From contig CADEDE010000004.1 of NCBI GenBank assembly GCA_902825995.1, positions 3,977-67,976 of the forward strand: DNA of 64,000 nt, in the 5' to 3' direction. Below, piece after piece: positions 1 to 33,510 of the stretch. The notes beneath the pieces are model-generated. The model had not been told where the DNA came from. It saw nothing but the letters and a program-made list of their open reading frames with translations, and made no database searches. How positions within the stretch are numbered: position 1 is the first letter of the stretch; each line of letters starts with the position of its first letter. Position numbers and translations under genes: made by a program. Origin of the DNA: an uncultured Burkholderiales bacterium. GTDB lineage: Bacteria > Pseudomonadota > Gammaproteobacteria > Burkholderiales > Burkholderiaceae_C.

Positions 1-684
1 GCCCTGCGCATCATCGAAGCGGTGGTCGCGGCCTGCGCGCCGCGCGGCGTGCCCGTGACCTTGAAGATGCGCAGCGGGCGCAACGCGGCCGAGAAGAACG
101 CCGTCGCACTGGCCCGCATGGCCGAGCAGGCCGGCGTGGCGATGTTGGCCGTGCACGGCCGCACGCGCGAGCAGGGCTTCAAGGGCCTGGCCGAGTACGA
201 CACGGTGGCGGCGGTGAAGGCCGCGCTGTCGATTCCGGTGGCGGCCAATGGCGATATCGATTCGCCCGAGAAGGCGCGCGCTGTGCTGACCTATACGCAG
301 GCCGACGCGCTGATGATCGGCCGCGCGGCGCAAGGCCGGCCGTGGATCTTCCGCGAAGTGGCGCATTTCCTGGCCACCGGCGATCGCCTCGCGCCGCCCA
401 CGGTGGTTGAAGCGTCGACCTGGCTCGGCGAACACCTGCACGACCACTACGCGCTGTATGGCGAGCACATCGGCGTGCGCAGCGCGCGCAAGCATATCGG
501 CTGGGCCCTGCGCGAGCTGCCCGGCGGCGAGGCCTTTCGCGCCGAAATGAATCGGATCGACGATGGCGCGGCGCAGCTGGCCGCCGTCACGCAATGGTTT
601 GCCCAATTGGCTGCACAACATGAACGACTGCCACGCATCGGCGTGCCGGCCGCCAACAACGACCTGATCGAATTGACGGCATGA
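1..684 (+). CDS. dusB: tRNA-dihydrouridine synthase B, C-terminal part (5' end lies outside the window)
   Basis: Frame open from base 1. Dus-type motifs present (VTLKMRSG, AVHGRTR, ANGDI, MIGRAAQGRPWIF). Stop overlaps the fis ATG (ATGA at 681-684), and dusB-fis is a conserved gene pair. Confidence 0.85.
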   Translation, partial: ALRIIEAVVAACAPRGVPVTLKMRSGRNAAEKNAVALARMAEQAGVAMLAVHGRTREQGFKGLAEYDTVAAVKAALSIPVAANGDIDSPEKARAVLTYTQADALMIGRAAQGRPWIFREVAHFLATGDRLAPPTVVEASTWLGEHLHDHYALYGEHIGVRSARKHIGWALRELPGGEAFRAEMNRIDDGAAQLAAVTQWFAQLAAQHERLPRIGVPAANNDLIELTA

Positions 685-4865: not shown

Positions 4866-5731
4866 TGGCCCAGGACAGCGGCGTGACCCCGTTGCTCGAC
4901 GCCTTCTGGCGCGCCGCCGCGTATTGCCTGCACCCGCGGGTGATCCTGCTGTCGCTGGCGCCGCTGCTGCTGGCCGGCGGGCTGACGCTCGCACTGGGCT
5001 GGTTCTATTGGGAGCCCGCCGTGGCGGGCGTGCGAGCGACGCTCGAAGCCTGGTCGTCGCTCGAGGTGCTGCTGAAATGGCTCGAGTCGATCGGCCTCAA
5101 TGGCTTGCGCGCATTGATCGCGCCCCTGATCGTGCTCGCACTGGCGCTGCCGCTGATCGTCGTGCTGTCGCTGTTGGTGGTGGCCTTGTCGATGGCCCCG
5201 GCCCTGGTGTCGCTGGTCGCCCGACGGCGCTTTGCCGAGCTCGAAGCCAAACGCGGCGCGGCGCTGTGGCAATCGGTGTTGTGGTCGCTCGGCTGCACGC
5301 TGGTTGCCGTTATCGCCCTCGTGCTCAGCCTCCCGCTGTGGTTCGTGCCGCCGCTGATCTTGTTGATACCACCGCTGATCTGGGGCTGGCTGACCTGCCG
5401 CGTGATGGCCTTCGACGTGCTGGCAGAGCACGCCAGCGCCGACGAGCGGCGCACGATCCTGCGTGAGCAGCGCTGGCCACTGCTGGCCATCGGTGTGGTC
5501 TGCGGCTACCTCGGCGCTGCACCGACGCTGTTGTGGGCGGTGAGCGCGGCAACCCTGATTTTTGCGCCGCTGCTGGTGCTGATATCGGTGTGGCTCTATA
5601 CGTTGGTGTTTGCCTTCGCGGCGCTGTGGTTCGCCCATTTCGCGCTGGCGGCATTGCAGCGCCTGCGACAATCGACGATGCCGGTGCCACCGGCTCCTCT
5701 TCAACCCATCGAAATACTGCCTCTGTCATGA
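4865..5731 (+). CDS. EI24/CysZ-like polytopic inner-membrane protein
   Basis: 288 aa, 6-7 hydrophobic helices, high GC3. ATG overlaps the previous stop by 1 nt. The family assignment is from memory of similar annotations and is tentative. Confidence 0.6.
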   Translation: MAQDSGVTPLLDAFWRAAAYCLHPRVILLSLAPLLLAGGLTLALGWFYWEPAVAGVRATLEAWSSLEVLLKWLESIGLNGLRALIAPLIVLALALPLIVVLSLLVVALSMAPALVSLVARRRFAELEAKRGAALWQSVLWSLGCTLVAVIALVLSLPLWFVPPLILLIPPLIWGWLTCRVMAFDVLAEHASADERRTILREQRWPLLAIGVVCGYLGAAPTLLWAVSAATLIFAPLLVLISVWLYTLVFAFAALWFAHFALAALQRLRQSTMPVPPAPLQPIEILPLS

Positions 5732-5798
5732 CCAACCCCAAGCTCACTTCGTTCGCAGCCCCCCAAGGGGGCGTCAGCACGCTTGGGGCGGCCCGGCG
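5729..5798 (+). repeat. Family-1 GC-rich hairpin element, copy A (intergenic)
   Basis: TGACCAACCCCAAGCTCACTTCGTTCGCAGCCCCCCAAGGGGGCGTCAGCACGCTTGGGGCGGCCCGGCG. The 7-bp stem is CCCCAAG (5761-5767) paired with CTTGGGG (5782-5788). Its TGA is the stop codon of the upstream CDS. Confidence 0.85.
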
Positions 5799-5807
5799 CG
5801 TACTGGC

Positions 5808-6602
5808 ATGAACTTCGGCCTGATCATCGTCGGCGACGAAATCCTCTCCGGCAAACGCCAGGACCAGCACCTGCCCAAAGTCATCGAACTGCTCGGCGCT
5901 CGCGGCCTGTCGCTGGCCTGGGCGCGCTATGTCGGCGACGACCGCCGGCTCATCACCGAAGCCTTGCGCCACGCTTTCGCCAGCGGCGACGCGGTCTTCA
6001 GTTGCGGCGGCATCGGCGCCACGCCCGACGATCACACGCGCCAGTGCGCCGCGGCGGCGCTCGGTGTGGCGCTCGAATTGCATCCCGAGGCCAAGGCCCT
6101 GATCACGCAGCGCATGCAAGACCGGGCGGCGGAAAAGGGCCTGCCCTTCGATGCCGATGCGCCCGACAACATCCACCGTCTGAATATGGGTGTATTCCCG
6201 GCGGGCGCCTCGATCATCGCCAACCCGTACAACCAGATTCCCGGCTTTACGGTTGGCGAGGTGCATTTCGTGCCAGGCTTCCCGGTGATGGCGCACCCGA
6301 TGATCGAAACCGTGCTCGACACCCGCTACCGCGCGCTGCACGGTTCGCTGCGCGAGGCCGAATACTCGGTGATCGTCTATGGGTCGATCGAGGCCGCACT
6401 GACGCCGCTGATGGAAGCCGTCGAGCGCGACCACGCCGGCGTGCGCGTGTTCAGCCTGCCCAGCGTCGATCACCCGGTGCATGGGCGGCACATCGAGCTC
6501 GGCGTCAAGGGCGGCGAAACCTTGCTGCCTGCGGCCTATGCCGCGCTGCGCGCCGGGCTGGCCGCCCTGGGCGCGCAGACAGGCCCCGAACTGGTGCGCT
6601 GA
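5808..6602 (+). CDS. CinA-like competence/damage-inducible protein (MoCF-biosynthesis domain)
   Basis: [19 protein letters not shown] and [14 protein letters not shown] motifs are typical of the CinA N-terminal domain family. Confidence 0.75.
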
Positions 6603-17619: not shown

Positions 17620-20549
17620 GCGATGCTGCGGACTTCGCCCGCGCCGTAGAGGTTGCTTGTACAACGCCCGCAAAGGGCCGGGTGCGCGGCGTCATGGCCG
17701 ACGTCGCTGCGCCAGTGCCAGCAGCGTTCGCACTTGGCGGCGGATGACGGTGTCACGGTGATGACCAGTGCAGCGCCGCACCGCAGCCTCGCCTGCGAAG
17801 TGATCAACACGAACTTCAGGTCTTCGCCCAGCGTGGCCAGCAGTTCATGGTCGGCCTCGTTCAGCGTCAGTGTGACTTCGGCTTGCAATGACGAACCGAC
17901 GCTGCCTTCGCTGCGCACCGCCTCGATGGCCTTGTTGACCTCGTCGCGGATGGTGCGGATGCGCTGCCACTTGGCGAGCAGCGCCGCATCGGGTGCGTCG
18001 AAACGCCAGAAAGTTTCGGTGAAGATCGACGGCGACTGGCCCGGCGCAAGCACCGGCCAGGCCTCCTCGGCCGTGAACGACAGGAACGGCGCCATCCAGC
18101 GCAGCATCGCGTGCGTGATCTGCCACAGCGCCGTCTGCGCCGAGCGGCGGGCGAGCGATTTCGGCGCGGTGGTGTAGAGGCGATCCTTCAGCACGTCGAG
18201 GTAGAACGCGCCCAAATCTTCGCTGCAAAAGAGCTGTAGCTTGGCGACCACCGGGTGGAACTCGAAGCGCTCGTAGTGGGCCAGCATTTCGGCCTGCAAC
18301 TCGGCCGCGCGCGACAGGGCCCAGCGGTCGATCTCGAGCATGTCAGCCACGGGCACGGCGTCGCGCCCGGCGTCGAAGTCGGCGATATTGGCGAGCAGGA
18401 AGCGCAGCGTATTGCGGATGCGCCGGTAGCTGTCGACCACCCGGGCCAGGATCTTCTTGTCGATCGGCGGGTCGCCGGCATAGTCGGTCGAGGCGCACCA
18501 CAGGCGCGCCACCTCGGCGCCCGGATCCTTGGCGAACTCGCGGATTTCGATGATGTTGCCGAGCGACTTGCTCATCTTGCGGCCCTGGCCATCGACCGTA
18601 AAACCGTGTGTGAGCAGGCCGCGATACGGTGCATGGCCTTCGAGCGCGCAGCCCAGCAGCAGGGCCGAATGAAACCAACCGCGGTGCTGGTCGTGGCCTT
18701 CGAGGTAGAGATCGGCTTCAGGGCCGGTTCGGTGGTGCCCGTCGGGATGCGAGCCGCGCAGCACGTGGAAGAAGGTCGAGCCGGAGTCGAACCAGACTTC
18801 GAGGATGTCGCTGCCTTTCGTATAGTCCGCAGCGTCTTTGGCACCGAGGATTTCTTCCGCAGTCACGCGACTCCAGGCCTCGACGCCGCCCCGCTCGACG
18901 ATATCCGCAGCACGGTCGAGTATGGCCATCGTGTCCGGATGCAGTTCGCCCGAATCCTTGTGCAGGAAGAAGGGCAGCGGCACACCCCAGCTGCGCTGGC
19001 GGCTGATGCACCAGTCGGGCCGGTTGGCGATCATGTCGCGCAGGCGGGCCTGGCCGTTGTCGGGGAAGAACGCGGTGGCGTCGATCGCCTCGAGCGCCAT
19101 TGCACGCAAGGTGCGCGGCGCCTTGTCCTTGGTGAAGACGCCCGCCGTTGACACATTTGCTTCGTCCATGCGGATGAACCACTGCGCGGCGGCGCGGTAG
19201 ATCACCGGCGTCTTGTGGCGCCAGCAATGCGGGTAGCTGTGGGTGATGGGCGAGGTGGCAAACAGGCGCCCGGCCTCGCGCAGCGCTTCGATGACGACCG
19301 GCACCGCCTTCCAGATATTCAGCCCGCCGAACAGCGGGAAGTCGGGTGCGTAGCTGCCGTGGCCCTGCACCGGGTTCAGGATTTGATCGACCTGCATGCC
19401 ATGCGCGGTGCATGAGTGGAAGTCATCCACGCCATAGGCCGGCGACGCATGCACGATGCCGGTGCCGTCGTCGGCGGTGGCGTAGTCGGCCAGATAGACC
19501 GGCGCGAGGCGGTCGTAGCCGGCGTCTATGTGCGCAAGGGGGTGGCGGAACAGGATGCCGCCGAGCTTCTCGCCCCGGGTCGTTGCGACCACATGGCCCT
19601 GCAGAGCGTAACGCCCGAGACATTTCTCGACCAGCGATGCCGCGAGCACGAGCTGCCCGCGCTCGGTGTGCACCAAGGCGTAGTCGAGTTCGGGATGGAG
19701 GTTGAGTGCCTGGTTGGCGGGAATCGTCCACGCGGTGGTGGTCCAGATCAGCGCAAAGGTTTCACCGACGATTTCAGGCAGACCGAAGGCTGCGGCCAGC
19801 TTGTCGGGCTCGGCGCACAAAAAGCCGACATCGAGCGTCTGCGATTTCTTGTCGGCATATTCGATCTCGAATTCGGCCAGCGACGAGCCGCAATCGAAGC
19901 ACCAATAGACCGGCTTCAGGCCGCGATAGACGAAGCCGCGCTCGATCACGCGCTTCAGGGCCCGCAACTCGCCGGCCTCGTTGGCGAAATCCATCGTGCG
20001 GTACGCATGCTCCCAATCGCCGAGCACGCCCAGGCGCTGGAAATCGGCCTTCTGCTGCGCGATTTGTTGGCTGGCGTAGGCCCGGCTCCTGGCCTGCATC
20101 TCGTCGCGGCTGAGCTTGCGGCCATGCGCCTTCTCGATCGCATTTTCGATCGGCAAGCCGTGGCAGTCCCAGCCCGGCACATAGCGCGCATCGAAGCCCG
20201 CCAGTTGCTTGGACTTGACGACCATGTCCTTCAGGATCTTGTTCACCGCGTGGCCGATGTGCAGCACGCCGTTGGCATACGGCGGGCCGTCGTGCAGGAC
20301 GAACAGCGGCGCACCGTGGCGCGCGTCGCGCAGCTTCTTGTACAGGCCTTGTTCGTTCCAATCCGCGATCCAGCCCGGCTCGCGCCTGGGCAAATCGCCG
20401 CGCATCGGAAACGGGGTGTCGGGCAGGTTCAGCGTAGCGCGGTAGTCGGGCCGGCAACTGCCGCCGGGCCGCCCCAAGGCCGTTGCGCTCCCCTCGGGGG
20501 ACGACGCCGTAGGCGTCCTGGGGCGGTCATTTGATTTCGGTTCGGACAT
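17616..20549 (-). CDS. ileS: Isoleucine--tRNA ligase
   Basis: 977 aa with HIGH ([11 protein letters not shown]), KMSKS ([10 protein letters not shown]) and a C-terminal zinc-finger pair (CERCWHW...CGRC). The N-terminus carries ~30 extra residues that include repeat copy B. Confidence 0.95.
20461..20529 (-). repeat. Family-1 element, copy B (inside the ileS 5' coding region)
   Basis: Minus-strand read: TGACCGCCCCAGGACGCCTACGGCGTCGTCCCCCGAGGGGAGCGCAACGGCCTTGGGGCGGCCCGGCGG. Translated as [23 protein letters not shown]. Confidence 0.85.
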
Positions 20550-22600: not shown

Positions 22601-22679
22601 GCGCTGGGCCGCTCCCGAGCCGACCGAGCGCCCCCTCGGGGGGGGCAGCCAGCCAAGCCAGCGTGGGGGCGGACATTCA
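22601..22679 (-). repeat. Family-1 element, copy C1 (intergenic hisA-ribF)
   Basis: Minus-strand read: TGAATGTCCGCCCCCACGCTGGCTTGGCTGGCTGCCCCCCCCGAGGGGGCGCTCGGTCGGCTCGGGAGCGGCCCAGCGC. The stem CCCGAG/CTCGGG is fully Watson-Crick. Confidence 0.8.
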
Positions 22680-22685
22680 GGCCAG

Positions 22686-22761
22686 CGCCGGGCCGCCCCA
22701 AGCGGCCTGAGTGCCCCCTCGGGGGGCAGCGAGCGCAGCGAGCGTGGGAGCGGATATTTCA
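22686..22761 (-). repeat. Family-1 element, copy C2 (its TGA is the hisA stop codon)
   Basis: Minus-strand read: TGAAATATCCGCTCCCACGCTCGCTGCGCTCGCTGCCCCCCGAGGGGGCACTCAGGCCGCTTGGGGCGGCCCGGCG. It lies 6 nt from copy C1. Confidence 0.85.
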
Positions 22762-23502
22762 GGCCTCGGCCAGTTGGTCGGCGCGCTGCTGGGCCGCCGC
22801 GAAATCGAGCGCGCCGGTGTAGATCGCACGTCCGCAGATCACGCCGTCAACGCCCTCGCCTTGGATCGCGCACAGGCGCTCGATATCGGCCATGCCGGCC
22901 AACCCGCCCGAGGCGATCACCGGGATCGTCAGCGCCTGCGCCAGCTTCAAGGTGGCCTCGATATTGATGCCGGTGAGCATGCCGTCGCGGCCGATATCGG
23001 TATAGATCACGCCTTCGACGCCGTAGTCCTCGAATTTCCTGGCCAGGTCGATGACCTCGTGCCCGGTGAGCTTGCTCCAGCCATCGGTGGCCACCTTGCC
23101 GTCCCTGGCGTCGAGGCCAACGATGATGTGGCCGCCGAAGGCGGTGCAGGCGTCGCGCAGAAAACCGGGGTTCTTGACCGCGGCGGTGCCGATGATGACG
23201 TAGCTCAAGCCGTCGTCGAGGTAGCGTTCGATGGTGTCGAGGTCGCGCAGACCGCCGCCGATCTGCACCGGAATTTGATCCCCCACCGCACGAACGATGG
23301 CCTTGACCGCCGACTCGTTGACCGGCTTGCCGGCAAAGGCGCCATTCAGATCCACCAGGTGCAGGCGCCGCGCACCGGCGGCGAGCCAGCGCCGCGCCAT
23401 CGCCGCGGGATCTTCGCCGAAGGTGGTGGCGGCTTTCATGTCGCCCTGTTCGAGGCGCACGCAGTGGCCGTCCTTGAGGTCGATCGCGGGTATCAGCAGC
23501 AT
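22759..23502 (-). CDS. hisA: ProFAR isomerase (1-(5-phosphoribosyl)-5-[(5-phosphoribosylamino)methylideneamino]imidazole-4-carboxamide isomerase)
   Basis: 247 aa ([30 protein letters not shown]). Confidence 0.95.
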
Positions 23503-28393: not shown

Positions 28394-30760
<2,367 letters not shown>

Positions 30761-30826: not shown

Positions 30827-31420
30827 ATGAGTACAACGCAGATTGTCACCTGGGTCGTTCTGGTCACGCTGGCCCTGTGGCTGCTGGCCGCCTACAACCG
30901 CCTGGTGCGCAGCCGCAACGAGATTGCCAACGCCTTTGCGCAGATCGACGTGCAATTGAAGCGCCGCTACGACCTGATTCCGAACCTGGTCGAAGTGGCG
31001 CGCAAATACGTGCAGCACGAACGCGACACACTCGAAGCCGTGATCGCAGCGCGCAACACGGCCAAGAGCGCCGGCGACGCAGCGCGTGCCAAGCCGGCCG
31101 ACGCGGCCCGCATCGGCGCGCTGGCCGGCGCCGAGGGCGCGCTGGCCGGGGCGATGAAGCAGCTGGCCGTCGTCGTCGAGGCCTATCCCGAACTGAAGGC
31201 CGACGCCACGCTGCGCGAATTGAGCGAAGAACTCGGCCACACCGAAAACCGCATTGCCTTCGCGCGCCAGGCCTTCAACGACAGCGTGCTCGACTACAAC
31301 AATGCCGCCCAGCAGGCACCGACCAATATCGTCGCCGGCCTGTTCGGCTTCAAGCAGGCAGCGCTGCTCGAAGCGACCTCGAGCGACGCTGAGCGCAGCG
31401 CGGTCCGCGTCAATCTGTAG
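30827..31420 (+). CDS. lemA: LemA-family protein
   Basis: 197 aa with an N-terminal TM helix, then YNRLVRSRNEIANAFAQIDVQLKRRYDLIPNLVE and YPELKAD. Confidence 0.88.
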   Translation: MSTTQIVTWVVLVTLALWLLAAYNRLVRSRNEIANAFAQIDVQLKRRYDLIPNLVEVARKYVQHERDTLEAVIAARNTAKSAGDAARAKPADAARIGALAGAEGALAGAMKQLAVVVEAYPELKADATLRELSEELGHTENRIAFARQAFNDSVLDYNNAAQQAPTNIVAGLFGFKQAALLEATSSDAERSAVRVNL

Positions 31421-31434
31421 GCGCCACCGGCACG

Positions 31435-33510
31435 ATGCGCTTTCGCCAGCACGAGCGCACGGCCCGGCAATCCACGCTGCGCCTGCTGGCCCTGTTTGCG
31501 CTGGTCGTCCTTGGCCTGCTGGTCGCTGTCAATGCGGTATTGGCGCTGATCTACTGGGCAACATTTCCATTCGCACGCGGCTTCCCGACGCTTTTCTTCG
31601 AGACCAACAGTGCGCTGGTGCTGTTGTTCGTGCTGGGTGGTTGCTGGGTCGAGTCGATGCGCCTGCGCGAGGGCGGCGCGCATGTCGCGCGCCTGGCCGG
31701 CGGGCGCGCGGCGCAGCTGTCCAGTGGCGGCGAACTGGGCCTGCTGGAACGGCGCTTCACCAACATCGTGCAGGAAATGAGCCTGGCCAGCGGCTATCCC
31801 GGCTGGCCGCCCGCCTGGGTGCTGCCCAAGGACGATGCGATCAACGCCTTCGCCGCCGGCTGGGGTGCAGACGACGCGGTGGTCGCCGTCACGCGCGGCG
31901 CACTCGAGCGCCTGACGCGCGCCGAGTTGCAGGGTGTCGTCGCGCACGAGTTCAGCCATCTGGTGCATGGCGATACGCGCCTGAATATGCGCCTGATCGG
32001 CCTGGTCTGGGGCCTGCAGATGATCTGGGGCCTGGGCCTCTCGCTGTGGGAGCCCGACGAGCAGGGCCGCCGCGGCGTCGGCAGCCTGTTCGGCCTGGGC
32101 CTGATGGCGGTCGGCTCGTTGGGCTGGGCCGCGGGGCGCCTGTTGCAGGCCGCGGTGAGCCGGCAGCGCGAATTCCTGGCCGATGCCTCGGCGGTGAAAT
32201 ATACGCGCGTCGTGGATGGCCTGGGCGGCGCGCTGCGCAAGATCGCCGACCAGCAACTGCAGGGCCGCGCCGGGCTGCAAAGCGCGCATACCACGAGCCT
32301 GGCGCACCTGCTCTTGAGCGCCCCCGGACCTGCCGCTTCGCGTCAGCCCCCCCGAGGGGGTCAAGGAAACTTGGGAGCGGCCCGGCGTTTCCTCGAGAGC
32401 GATCGCGGTGCGGGCGCCGGCTGGCGGGCGCTGTGGCACACGCACCCGCCCTTGGCTGAGCGGCTGCGCCGCTTGTACGGGCGCGAAATGTTGCCGCTGG
32501 CGGCGCCGGTGCTCGCGGTCGGTGCTGACGCCATCGAACCGCCGATGCGTCTGGCACCAGGCCCGTTAGCGCACGCCCGCGGGCCCACCGGCGCGAGCCA
32601 GCCCAGCGGCGCGAGCCCCGACGCCGAGCGCCACGACGCGCTGCAAAACCCGGCTTCCTTCGACGCACGGGCGCGCGAACAAGAGGCCCTGGCCCGCATC
32701 GAACATTGGCACGGTCCCGGCGAATGGCAGGCCGCGATGCTCGCGCTGGCACTCGATTTCGATGCACCCGAGGCCACGCTGCGCTGGCTCGAATGGCGCA
32801 ACGCCACCGCCGATCTCGGCGTGGCCGCATCAGTGCAGCGCGAGATCGAGGCCCTCGGCGCCAACGCGCGGCGGCAGGTCTTCACGACGCTGATGCACCG
32901 GGCGCGCAGCGCAACGCCCACGCAACGCCGCATCTTGCGGCTCGCGCTGCGGCAGCGCTGGTCGGCGCTGCCGCCGTCAGCGGCCACGCAATGGCGCGCA
33001 CTCGGGCTTGGGTTGCTGCTGAGCGCCCCCGGACCTGCCGCTTCGCGTCAGGCCCCCCGAGGGGGTCAAGGAAACTTGGGAGCGGCCCGGCGTTTCCTCG
33101 AGAGCGACAAGCGTCGGCCCCTCACGCGTGCCGACACGGCCGCATCACTGGCGCTGCACTCCGATCCCGCGCACGCCGCCACCGGGCTGCTCGCGCGCGC
33201 CCTGGGCGCTACGCCCGCTGCGGCCCAGGCCTGGCACAACGCAGCCACACAGGCGCTGGCCGAACTCGGCGCCGCCGCGCCGCGCGGCCCTGCCGCGGGC
33301 CTGGCGCCGGCCACGCGGCCGCGAAACCTTCATCTTGCCTTGCGCGTGCGCCGCATCGCGCCGATGCAGCGGCCGCTGCTGTTGCGGGCTTGGCTGGGCG
33401 CCGCCGAGCGCGGCGGCCTGTTCAGCCACGCCGGCACCGGCGATGCGCTGCACCTGGCCTGCCTGCTGCTCGAGGTGCCGGTGCCCGAGAGCCTGGTGCC
33501 CAGGCCCTGA
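31435..33510 (+). CDS. M48-family zinc metallopeptidase with a long C-terminal extension
   Basis: 691 aa with N-terminal TM helices, HEFSHLVHGD (HExxH), REFLADASA and THPPLAERLRRL. Adjacent to lemA. Contains two in-frame repeat copies. Confidence 0.8.
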   Translation: MRFRQHERTARQSTLRLLALFALVVLGLLVAVNAVLALIYWATFPFARGFPTLFFETNSALVLLFVLGGCWVESMRLREGGAHVARLAGGRAAQLSSGGELGLLERRFTNIVQEMSLASGYPGWPPAWVLPKDDAINAFAAGWGADDAVVAVTRGALERLTRAELQGVVAHEFSHLVHGDTRLNMRLIGLVWGLQMIWGLGLSLWEPDEQGRRGVGSLFGLGLMAVGSLGWAAGRLLQAAVSRQREFLADASAVKYTRVVDGLGGALRKIADQQLQGRAGLQSAHTTSLAHLLLSAPGPAASRQPPRGGQGNLGAARRFLESDRGAGAGWRALWHTHPPLAERLRRLYGREMLPLAAPVLAVGADAIEPPMRLAPGPLAHARGPTGASQPSGASPDAERHDALQNPASFDARAREQEALARIEHWHGPGEWQAAMLALALDFDAPEATLRWLEWRNATADLGVAASVQREIEALGANARRQVFTTLMHRARSATPTQRRILRLALRQRWSALPPSAATQWRALGLGLLLSAPGPAASRQAPRGGQGNLGAARRFLESDKRRPLTRADTAASLALHSDPAHAATGLLARALGATPAAAQAWHNAATQALAELGAAAPRGPAAGLAPATRPRNLHLALRVRRIAPMQRPLLLRAWLGAAERGGLFSHAGTGDALHLACLLLEVPVPESLVPRP
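32315..32387 (+). repeat. Family-1 element, copy D1 (in frame inside the M48 peptidase gene)
   Basis: TGAGCGCCCCCGGACCTGCCGCTTCGCGTCAGCCCCCCCGAGGGGGTCAAGGAAACTTGGGAGCGGCCCGGCG. Translated within LLLSAPGPAASRQPPRGGQGNLGAARRFLESD. Confidence 0.85.
33020..33092 (+). repeat. Family-1 element, copy D2 (in frame inside the M48 peptidase gene)
   Basis: Near-identical to D1: about 3 mismatches over the ~96 bp shared block 33013-33108 versus 32308-32403. Confidence 0.85.

Follow-up and report, generated by a model that had tools for sequence, protein, structure and literature searches.

In-frame insertions of an apparently BRE-type 81-nucleotide repeat at two sites within one M48 peptidase gene of an uncultured Burkholderiales bacterium

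The stretch of DNA considered here, referred to as the window, comprises 64,000 nucleotides (nt) of contig CADEDE010000004.1 from an uncultured member of the Burkholderiales, with a GC content of 67.7%. On its forward strand, at positions 31435..33510, lies a gene for an M48 (HtpX-like) zinc metallopeptidase of 691 amino acids (aa) with a C-terminal helical extension, and within this gene are two nearly identical blocks of 81 nt. Very probably, these blocks are two copies of a GC-rich, non-coding repeat of the type named BRE by Hot et al. (2011; BMC Genomics 12:207, PMC3110155), which entered this single gene in the present lineage, in the sense orientation and in an open frame, and which have since been tolerated.

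Two 27-codon inserts in an M48 peptidase gene

A repeat search of the 64-kb window returned a direct repeat of 94 nt, at 32309-32402 and 33014-33107, whose two copies lie 705 nt apart and are 97% identical. The runner-up direct repeats in the window are merely 40-44 nt long with approximately 70% identity. Only three mismatches separate the copies; two of these fall in the flanking Leu codons, and the third (C/G, giving P/A) lies within the element itself. Both copies are read in one and the same frame of the open reading frame (ORF) at 31435..33510, with the translation LLLSAPGPAASRQ(P/A)PRGGQGNLGAARRFLESD. An earlier reading made from the sequence alone (the sequence-only reading) had already described near-identical in-frame copies at this location, and its coordinates and translation are correct, as is its placement of copy 1 between the HEFSH/REFLAD region and THPPLAERL, and of copy 2 in the C-terminal extension. 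The net insertion at each site is 81 nt. Insert 1 occupies positions 32316..32396 of the plus strand and encodes residues S295-E321 (SAPGPAASRQPPRGGQGNLGAARRFLE), in the part of the M48 domain that separates its REFLAD and THPPLAERL helices, while insert 2, at 33021..33101 of the same strand, encodes S530-E556 (SAPGPAASRQAPRGGQGNLGAARRFLE) within the C-terminal helical domain. A GAGC tetranucleotide stands at the left end of each (32316-32319 and 33021-33024), and the sequence shows a second copy directly to the right of each on the plus strand, at 32397..32400 and 33102..33105, respectively. A hidden Markov model (HMM) of the repeat subfamily matches insert 1 with an E value of 2.5e-26 and insert 2 with 7.2e-27. 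The two direct repeats lie a whole number of codons apart (705 nt, 235 codons), and recombination between them would remove aa 295-529 in frame, including the THPPLAERL motif; the pair is accordingly a potential hotspot for in-frame deletion within the M48 gene.

Homologues of the M48 protein are numerous, with thousands returned by a protein search, and the best 120 of them range from 627 to 668 aa, against 691 aa in the window. The window protein was aligned with 19 orthologues at first and later with 104, for 105 sequences in all. Both blocks appear as clean 27-column gaps in the 19 and again in the 104, with no more than 1-4 residues aligned in either block, and the 27-aa peptide motif is present in 0 of the 104 orthologues. 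Because both blocks are missing from every orthologue, each is to be regarded as a clean, lineage-specific insertion of 81 nt, or 27 codons. This agrees with the earlier proposal that the blocks are akin to the intergenic repeats of the window, and are not ancestral protein sequence. When the inserts are removed in silico, the sequences HLLLSDRGA and LLLSDKRR are restored, which fit the orthologue patterns HLLL(S/A)(N/H)RGA and LLL(S/G)(D/R), and the flanks of both inserts are collinear and in frame with the orthologous gene. Searches of metagenomes with the insert-1 junction gave 0 matches. The element variant that is specific to the window (GGA together with CTCGAG) likewise had 0 metagenome matches, and is found nowhere else among 49 other copies of the repeat.

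The gene that received the inserts retains the features expected of its family. The Peptidase_M48 profile (PF01435) spans aa 106-350 with an E value of 1.9e-25, and is matched end to end (positions 5-185 of 186) despite the presence of insert 1. The HExxH motif, the downstream Glu that completes the zinc ligands and the C-terminal xHPxxxxR motif were all located, as HEFSH171-175, E246 in REFLAD and T336-H337-P-P-L-A-E-R343; these are invariant across the 105 sequences. Indeed, every residue that is invariant in this alignment is retained by the window protein, H337-P338 included. The ratio of nonsynonymous to synonymous substitution rates (dN/dS) between the window gene and two orthologues is 0.20 and 0.23, as compared to 0.20 between those two insert-free orthologues themselves. 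As dN/dS averages over a long history, these values leave room for a very recent inactivation. A scan of the inserts found no promoter- or terminator-like sites created by them. At the level of sequence, the gene bears no sign of decay and its ORF is intact, which favours the sequence-only reading. Immediately upstream, at 30833..31420 of the plus strand, lies its operon partner, a gene of the LemA family (PF04011, E value 3.6e-50), and the same LemA-M48 synteny is found in a relative (L002).

Structural context was drawn from an AlphaFold2 (AF2) model built with the 105 sequences (mean predicted local distance difference test score, pLDDT, of 76.8), which replaces a shallow run with 20 sequences (mean pLDDT 67.5). 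The N-terminal part of the M48 protein (aa 1-250) is modelled with a pLDDT of about 85-93, and the C-terminal helical domain (aa 410-690) with 93-97. Insert 2 corresponds to a dip in pLDDT to 50-62 between the confident helices H516-530 and H565 onwards (93-97). The stretch of aa 277-337, which includes insert 1, has a pLDDT below 50, and alignment to PDB entry 3C37 places insert 1 approximately 14 residues ahead of the THP motif. Both inserts, modelled as non-helical and with low confidence, are therefore compatible with loops, convincingly so for insert 2 alone. No PDB entry was significantly similar to the model in Foldseek; selecase (4qhi; probability 0.96, E value 0.5) came closest, over the catalytic core only. 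The C-terminal extension of approximately 280 residues (aa 410-690, window positions 32662-33507) is modelled as all-helical with a pLDDT of 93-97 and is conserved in all orthologues, without a Pfam family or a significant structural match in the PDB; it is an uncharacterised domain joined to LemA-linked M48 peptidases.

The dispersed unit and its insertion sites

The inserts belong to a repeat that is dispersed well beyond the M48 gene. A scan of one genome for each GTDB species found 49 exact occurrences of a 22-nt core, GGGGGTCAAGGAAACTTGGGAG, at 46 loci. The hosts are metagenome-assembled genomes (MAGs) of Piscinibacter, Rubrivivax, Methylibium and Caldimonas, along with further Burkholderiales MAGs, and a single Piscinibacter MAG holds 18 copies over 15 contigs. 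Over about 87 nt, the identity of these copies to the window copy is 82-97%; their consensus is (C)TWC-TGAGCGCCCCCAAACCTGCCGCTTCGCGTCAGGCCCCCCGAGGGGGTCAAGGAAACTTGGGAGCGGCCCGGCGTTTCCTTGAGAG(CG), and that of the left flank C-T-W-C-T-GAGCG. Tandem copies with an exact period of 81 nt occur at three loci (L014, L047 and L048). At L047 the tandem units are 98% identical over 81 nt, a match that includes CTTCTGAGCG against CTTGAGAGCG, and it follows that the conserved "left flank" of the element is homologous to the right end of the unit itself, CTTGAGAGCG. One copy (L049) was found in Burkholderia arboris (NZ_CP101525.1, 1414391-1414473), where it shows 86% identity, belongs to the same subfamily (HMM E value 7e-16) and is situated 12 nt upstream of an ATG. 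This species belongs to another family than the Piscinibacter group, and the record is labelled as a 3.5-Mb "plasmid" and is nearly unannotated.

The unit contains internal inverted repeats, namely TCAAGGAAAC/GTTTCCTTGA and the palindrome CCCCCCGAGGGGG. No terminal inverted repeats were detected; the ends of the element are direct repeats. Its predicted folding energy is unexceptional (z of -0.5 to -1.3), and a strong palindrome or RNA structure was rejected on these values. When the unit is circularised, four of its six frames are open, as is most frequently the case in composition-matched shuffles, and the several open frames were on this ground rejected as a sign of selection. All sense-strand in-frame copies use the same frame, that of the M48 gene, and this is the only fully open sense frame of the consensus. 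The sequence-only reading had pointed to several frame and peptide versions of the element in ileS, hisG and the M48 gene; the hisG case is confirmed and ileS uses a third frame, as described below, but the openness itself is ordinary. Database comparisons added little: Rfam recognised no family at its gathering thresholds over the whole window, a literature search by sequence strings gave nothing relevant, and a search for the peptide dimer in a collection of 5.8 billion proteins gave five weak matches among 21 candidates and missed the window's own protein, its word index being unsuited to the query.

The positions of the copies relative to genes are far from uniform. The TGA with which the element begins serves, in 17-19 of the 49 copies, as the stop codon for a long upstream ORF in the same orientation, whose GC content at third codon positions (GC3) is of the coding type (0.82-0.96). 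The left ends of these copies (L003, L010, L014, L017, L020, L026, L028, L030, L031, L038, L039, L041 and L044-L048) usually place the TGA after TTC or TAC. The remaining copies are intergenic, except that at least four of the 49, in addition to the two M48 inserts, lie in frame within genes, as recognised from GC3 values and from Pfam scans; two of these are inside Pfam domains. In Piscinibacter sp. SMAG_U4617 (L021), the same 27-aa insert is located inside the AMP-binding domain (PF00501) of an acyl-CoA synthetase, and the Pfam match runs through it; this filled allele (P0126) recurs in JGI metagenomes. A copy in the M48 frame at L040 (about 413-500, minus strand of the locus) splits a PAS/HisKA/HATPase/receiver hybrid kinase in its HisKA phospho-acceptor domain, where it separates the two helices. 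The in-frame copy at L029 lies in a membrane protein recognised by GC3 alone, without a Pfam match. Copies in an antisense frame occur in the N-terminal regions of a polyhydroxybutyrate (PHB)-depolymerase-type esterase (L037) and an RluB-like pseudouridine synthase (L043).

The acyl-CoA synthetase provides a filled and empty pair. The filled protein, P0126, has 595 aa, and its nearest relative, P0127 (L050), with 88% aa identity, has 568 aa and is thus exactly 27 residues shorter. The empty allele reads GACCTCTC|GAGC|CTGCGC, and the filled allele GACCTCAC-GAGC-[77 nt]-GAGC-CTGCGC, so that the net gain is 81 nt and the insert is flanked by a 4-nt direct repeat, GAGC, as a target-site duplication. 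At the hisG site, which holds a member of a diverged subfamily, it is a TGA that is duplicated. Each of the five sense in-frame copies (the two M48 inserts, L021, L029 and L040) is preceded by CTNNNGAGC. When the insert-free M48 gene is reconstructed, the sense motif CTNNNGAGCG occurs in it exactly twice, and these are the two insertion sites (CTC TTG AGC GAT and CTG CTG AGC GAC). At site 2, the orthologues L051 and L052 read CTC AGC GAT (LSD), which makes AGCGA plausibly ancestral there. The shorter motif TGAGCG was considered as a sufficient target and rejected, since further occurrences of TGAGCG and of CTNNNGAGCG, in the gene and in the window, hold no insert.

Competing explanations for the paired inserts

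The account that best joins these observations begins with integration, which would take place at short CTNNN-GAGC sites resembling the right end of the element and would leave GAGC on both sides. Such integration at sites like the element's own end fits site-specific recombination or microhomology-mediated copying. The ancestral M48 gene would have possessed two sites of this kind, both at Leu-Leu-Ser codons (CTC TTG AGC and CTG CTG AGC), and both would have been struck. The insertions may then have persisted owing to a length that is a multiple of three, an open frame and a 27-aa peptide, rich in Pro, Gly and Arg, that would be accommodated in flexible loops. On this account, the inserts would be tolerated passengers, neither ancestral nor adaptive protein sequence, and elsewhere the family would survive mostly where it is harmless, on TGA stops, where a stop and a start overlap as ATGA, and between genes.

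Several points weigh against this account. The count of CTNNNGAGCG sites in the reconstructed gene is in part circular, since the reconstruction necessarily retains GAGCG, and roughly six further occurrences of the motif in the window hold no insert, which indicates that the motif is permissive and not sufficient. The orthologues carry GCC/TCG/GCG AAC/CAC at site 1 in place of AGC GAT, and for that site a GAGC duplication is putative. More generally, the nearest relative in the databases searched has approximately 81% aligned identity, so the exact ancestral M48 sites are a reconstruction. No transposase or recombinase is linked to the element, although no search for a parent insertion sequence (IS), REP-associated tyrosine transposase (RAYT) or recombinase was made. 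With regard to the protein, the low-confidence region around insert 1 reaches into the conserved flanks (aa 277-337), and the placement of this insert in a surface loop is consequently tentative. Finally, the element variant common to both inserts is confined to the window, and independent insertions are in this respect indistinguishable from the copying of one insert to a second site.

This last point leads to an explanation that is possible, albeit the less probable course: a single true insertion, with the second copy made by ectopic gene conversion or by microhomology-mediated copying to a similar Leu-Leu-Ser-Asp site. The copies differ at one position within the element, their two derived states (CCCCCGGACC and CCTCGAG) are never found together in the 49 other copies or in metagenomes, and both sites share CTNNNGAGCGA. 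However, the element enters CTNNNGAGC sites independently in unrelated genes, the shared variants may simply reflect a local master sequence, and the outcome of such copying is identical to that of two insertions. The idea that the M48 gene is instead a decaying pseudogene, in which inserts are tolerated since the gene no longer matters, is unlikely. It draws on the position of insert 1 within the catalytic domain, so close to the THP motif, and on the low AF2 confidence of aa 277-337, but it is at odds with an intact ORF of 691 codons, the retention of all residues invariant in the 105 sequences, a dN/dS equal to that of the insert-free pair and a Pfam profile matched nearly in full. Similar inserts are, moreover, present inside domains of the acyl-CoA synthetase and the histidine kinase, and the filled synthetase allele recurs in independent metagenomes.

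More doubtful still is the notion that the inserts have been co-opted, whether as a peptide loop close to the active site, flexible or regulatory, or as RNA hairpins that modulate translation or mRNA stability. The recurrence of one peptide in frame in several enzymes would agree with this, as would the precise location of the family on stop codons and ATGA junctions, which suggests a role at the level of RNA. Insert 1 also lies in the segment before the His of the THP motif, which in BepA is a mobile regulatory loop. Yet the inserts are confined to one lineage, and each in-frame case elsewhere is likewise private; the peptide is of low complexity and predicted to be disordered; and the open frames are expected from composition, the folding energy is unexceptional and no terminator-like site is created. 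It is scarcely credible, lastly, that the blocks are an ancestral internal repeat of the protein or an artefact of assembly. The contig does come from a draft or MAG-type assembly, but the blocks are missing in all 104 orthologues, their DNA is about 90-96% identical to dispersed copies elsewhere, all flanks are collinear and in frame, and analogous inserts occur in independent assemblies.

A bolder description would go beyond the insertion of two tolerated repeats into the M48 gene. The element might be an undescribed, site-specific mobile repeat of GC-rich Burkholderiales that targets CTNNN-GAGC, duplicates GAGC, has a 27-codon unit and prefers TGA stops and ATGA junctions, perhaps for reasons of mRNA stability or translational coupling, while repeatedly seeding the same 27-aa loop into catalytic domains of unrelated enzymes. 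It would then be a free-living, high-GC counterpart of the Rickettsia palindromic elements (RPEs), and its integration would possibly be independent of any transposase. Taken as a whole, this description is rather improbable.

Diverged copies and known repeat families

Diverged relatives of the element, which share the core CCCCYNRGGGGG, are found at six sites in the window, as compared to 0.1 expected. Such core-sharing copies are situated at approximately 5728-5811, 20461-20530, 22601-22681, 22686-22763 and 29025-29102. The copy at the overlap of the murA stop and the hisG start (ATGA) extends on the minus strand from 29025 to about 29102-29106. In the syntenic relative L002, where the site is empty, the junction reads GG ATGA TCAC, and in the window it reads GG ATGA [78 nt ending in TGA] TCAC. 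The ancestral hisG ATG is now CTG, and the element provides HisG with a new ATG and lengthens its N-terminus by 26 aa. The 5' end of ileS holds a diverged copy at 20461..20530 (minus strand), which is read in a third frame. The only in-frame starts upstream of the conserved segment of ileS lie inside or upstream of the element, with a predicted N-terminus of 34 residues before that segment, and translation must accordingly begin inside or upstream of the element. Two further diverged copies are arranged in tandem at 22601..22763 (minus strand), just 3' of the stop of a gene that ends at 22759, and a BRE HMM matches this pair at 22690-22750.

The family that most resembles the element is BRE. 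These repeats are approximately 90 bp in length (75-91 bp), have a GC content of about 69% and are often in tandem, with units that adjoin or are only a few bases apart; they are usually intergenic, with some that overlap the ends of ORFs and some "entirely within coding sequences", and they have been found in Bordetella, Polaromonas, Delftia, Acidovorax, Rhodoferax, Azoarcus and Burkholderia (PMC3110155). About nine genes with internal BRE inserts were counted by Delihas (2011; PMC3184786). The element of the window is likewise a GC-rich unit, of 81 nt (about 85-90 nt with its terminal repeat), in hosts among the Betaproteobacteria, a class shared with BRE that includes Burkholderia and the Comamonadaceae. 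It forms head-to-tail tandems, at L014, L047 and L048 and in the diverged pair at 22601-22763, and is mostly intergenic with some copies at ORF ends and some within genes. In both, three blocks follow in the same order: CGGGCCGC-CCAAG, then CCCCCTCGGGGGGC after about 9 nt, and TGGGGGC after about 20-26 nt more. Differences include the lack of flanking T-runs in the window element and its distinct right arm, TCAAGGAAAC...GTTTCCTTGA, and the frame, target site, GAGC duplication and association with stop codons were not described by Hot et al. (PMC3110155).

Similarity to BRE was defined by the authors of that family as a YASS score above 50 and identity above 70%. For the present comparison, 12 published BRE sequences of Bordetella were turned into an HMM for nhmmer. 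This HMM matched 22690-22750 with an E value of 0.001, and 5751-5794, 29039-29097 and 22630-22670 with E values of 0.2-0.5; the M48 copies gave no match. In Smith-Waterman comparisons, none of 2000 shuffles equalled the score of the subfamily consensus against the copy at 22700 (0/2000), and the same was true of BRE against that copy (0/2000). Compared directly, the subfamily and BRE gave 11/2000, a similarity driven mostly by the central palindrome. By way of these transitive links through the 22700 copy, it is likely that the M48 subfamily belongs to the BRE superfamily, and the sequence support for this is transitive only.

The supposition that such insertions had not been described for this kind of organism does not stand, given that BRE-type repeats inside coding sequences of Betaproteobacteria are already known from the two studies cited above. 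What is new is the presence of two copies in one protease gene, with one of them within the catalytic domain. Also new are the distinct subfamily with an 81-nt unit that Burkholderia shares with the Piscinibacter/Rubrivivax group, the duplicated GAGC of a filled/empty pair and the strong association with TGA stops. The filled/empty pair with its GAGC duplication, along with the stop-codon association, offers an entry point to the mobilisation of BRE-type repeats. The element also accounts for odd 27-residue blocks rich in Pro, Gly and Arg, and for N-terminal extensions, in annotations of these genomes, with the caution that such 27-residue blocks are not protein motifs.

The analogy with RPEs, which had been drawn from the sequence alone, is apt as to behaviour. 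Like RPEs, which according to PMC10969869 (citing Ogata et al. 2000) are short repeats found in frame in unrelated genes, where they add a conserved peptide and keep the ORF, and also in non-coding DNA, the element is inserted in frame with preservation of the ORF in the M48 gene (twice), the acyl-CoA synthetase, the histidine kinase, the membrane protein, the PHB esterase and the RluB-like protein. The epithet "palindromic" is only weakly true of it. RPEs are approximately 105-150 bp and markedly palindromic, whereas the element is 81 nt with internal hairpins only. RPE hosts are AT-rich, obligate intracellular Alphaproteobacteria, and those of the element are free-living betaproteobacteria with about 68% GC. 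In R. conorii, moreover, nearly half of 44 RPE copies were reported inside ORFs (PMC10969869), but the element is in frame in a minority, about 3 of the 18 copies in the best-sampled MAG. The element is accordingly treated as an analogue of RPEs and not a member, being set apart by host, GC content and length, and a relationship in sequence is not expected. In-frame colonisation by selfish repeats is best documented in Rickettsia, with its reduced intracellular genome, and is here encountered in a free-living, GC-rich member of the Burkholderiales.

Other classes of small repeat offer parallels as well. MITEs (miniature transposable elements with inverted repeats), repetitive extragenic palindromic (REP) sequences and bacterial interspersed mosaic elements (BIMEs) are small, non-autonomous, multicopy, GC-rich hairpin elements that are sometimes in frame in genes (PMC10969869; PMC3184786). 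The element lacks the terminal inverted repeats of MITEs but has a target-site duplication. Its unit is longer than that of REP sequences (approximately 35 bp), and no parent IS or RAYT was identified, none having been searched for. Mycobacterial interspersed repetitive units (MIRUs) belong to another phylum and have no sequence similarity to the element, and they are intercistronic and not known inside catalytic domains. PMC3184786 (citing Supply et al. 1997) describes them as GC-rich variable tandem units of 40-100 bp with tetranucleotide direct repeats at filled sites, and as small ORFs that overlap adjacent stops and starts in operons, to which the copy at 5728-5811, the hisG case and the TGA stops may be compared. 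The first of these, at 5728..5811 on the plus strand (E value 0.006 with the M48-subfamily HMM), is a mini-ORF of 27 codons bounded as ATGA...ATGA. At its 5' end, its ATG overlaps the TGA of an upstream membrane-protein gene, and at its 3' end there is a like overlap between its TGA and the ATG of the next gene, a layout that is MIRU-like and by which, on that analogy, translational coupling would be kept.

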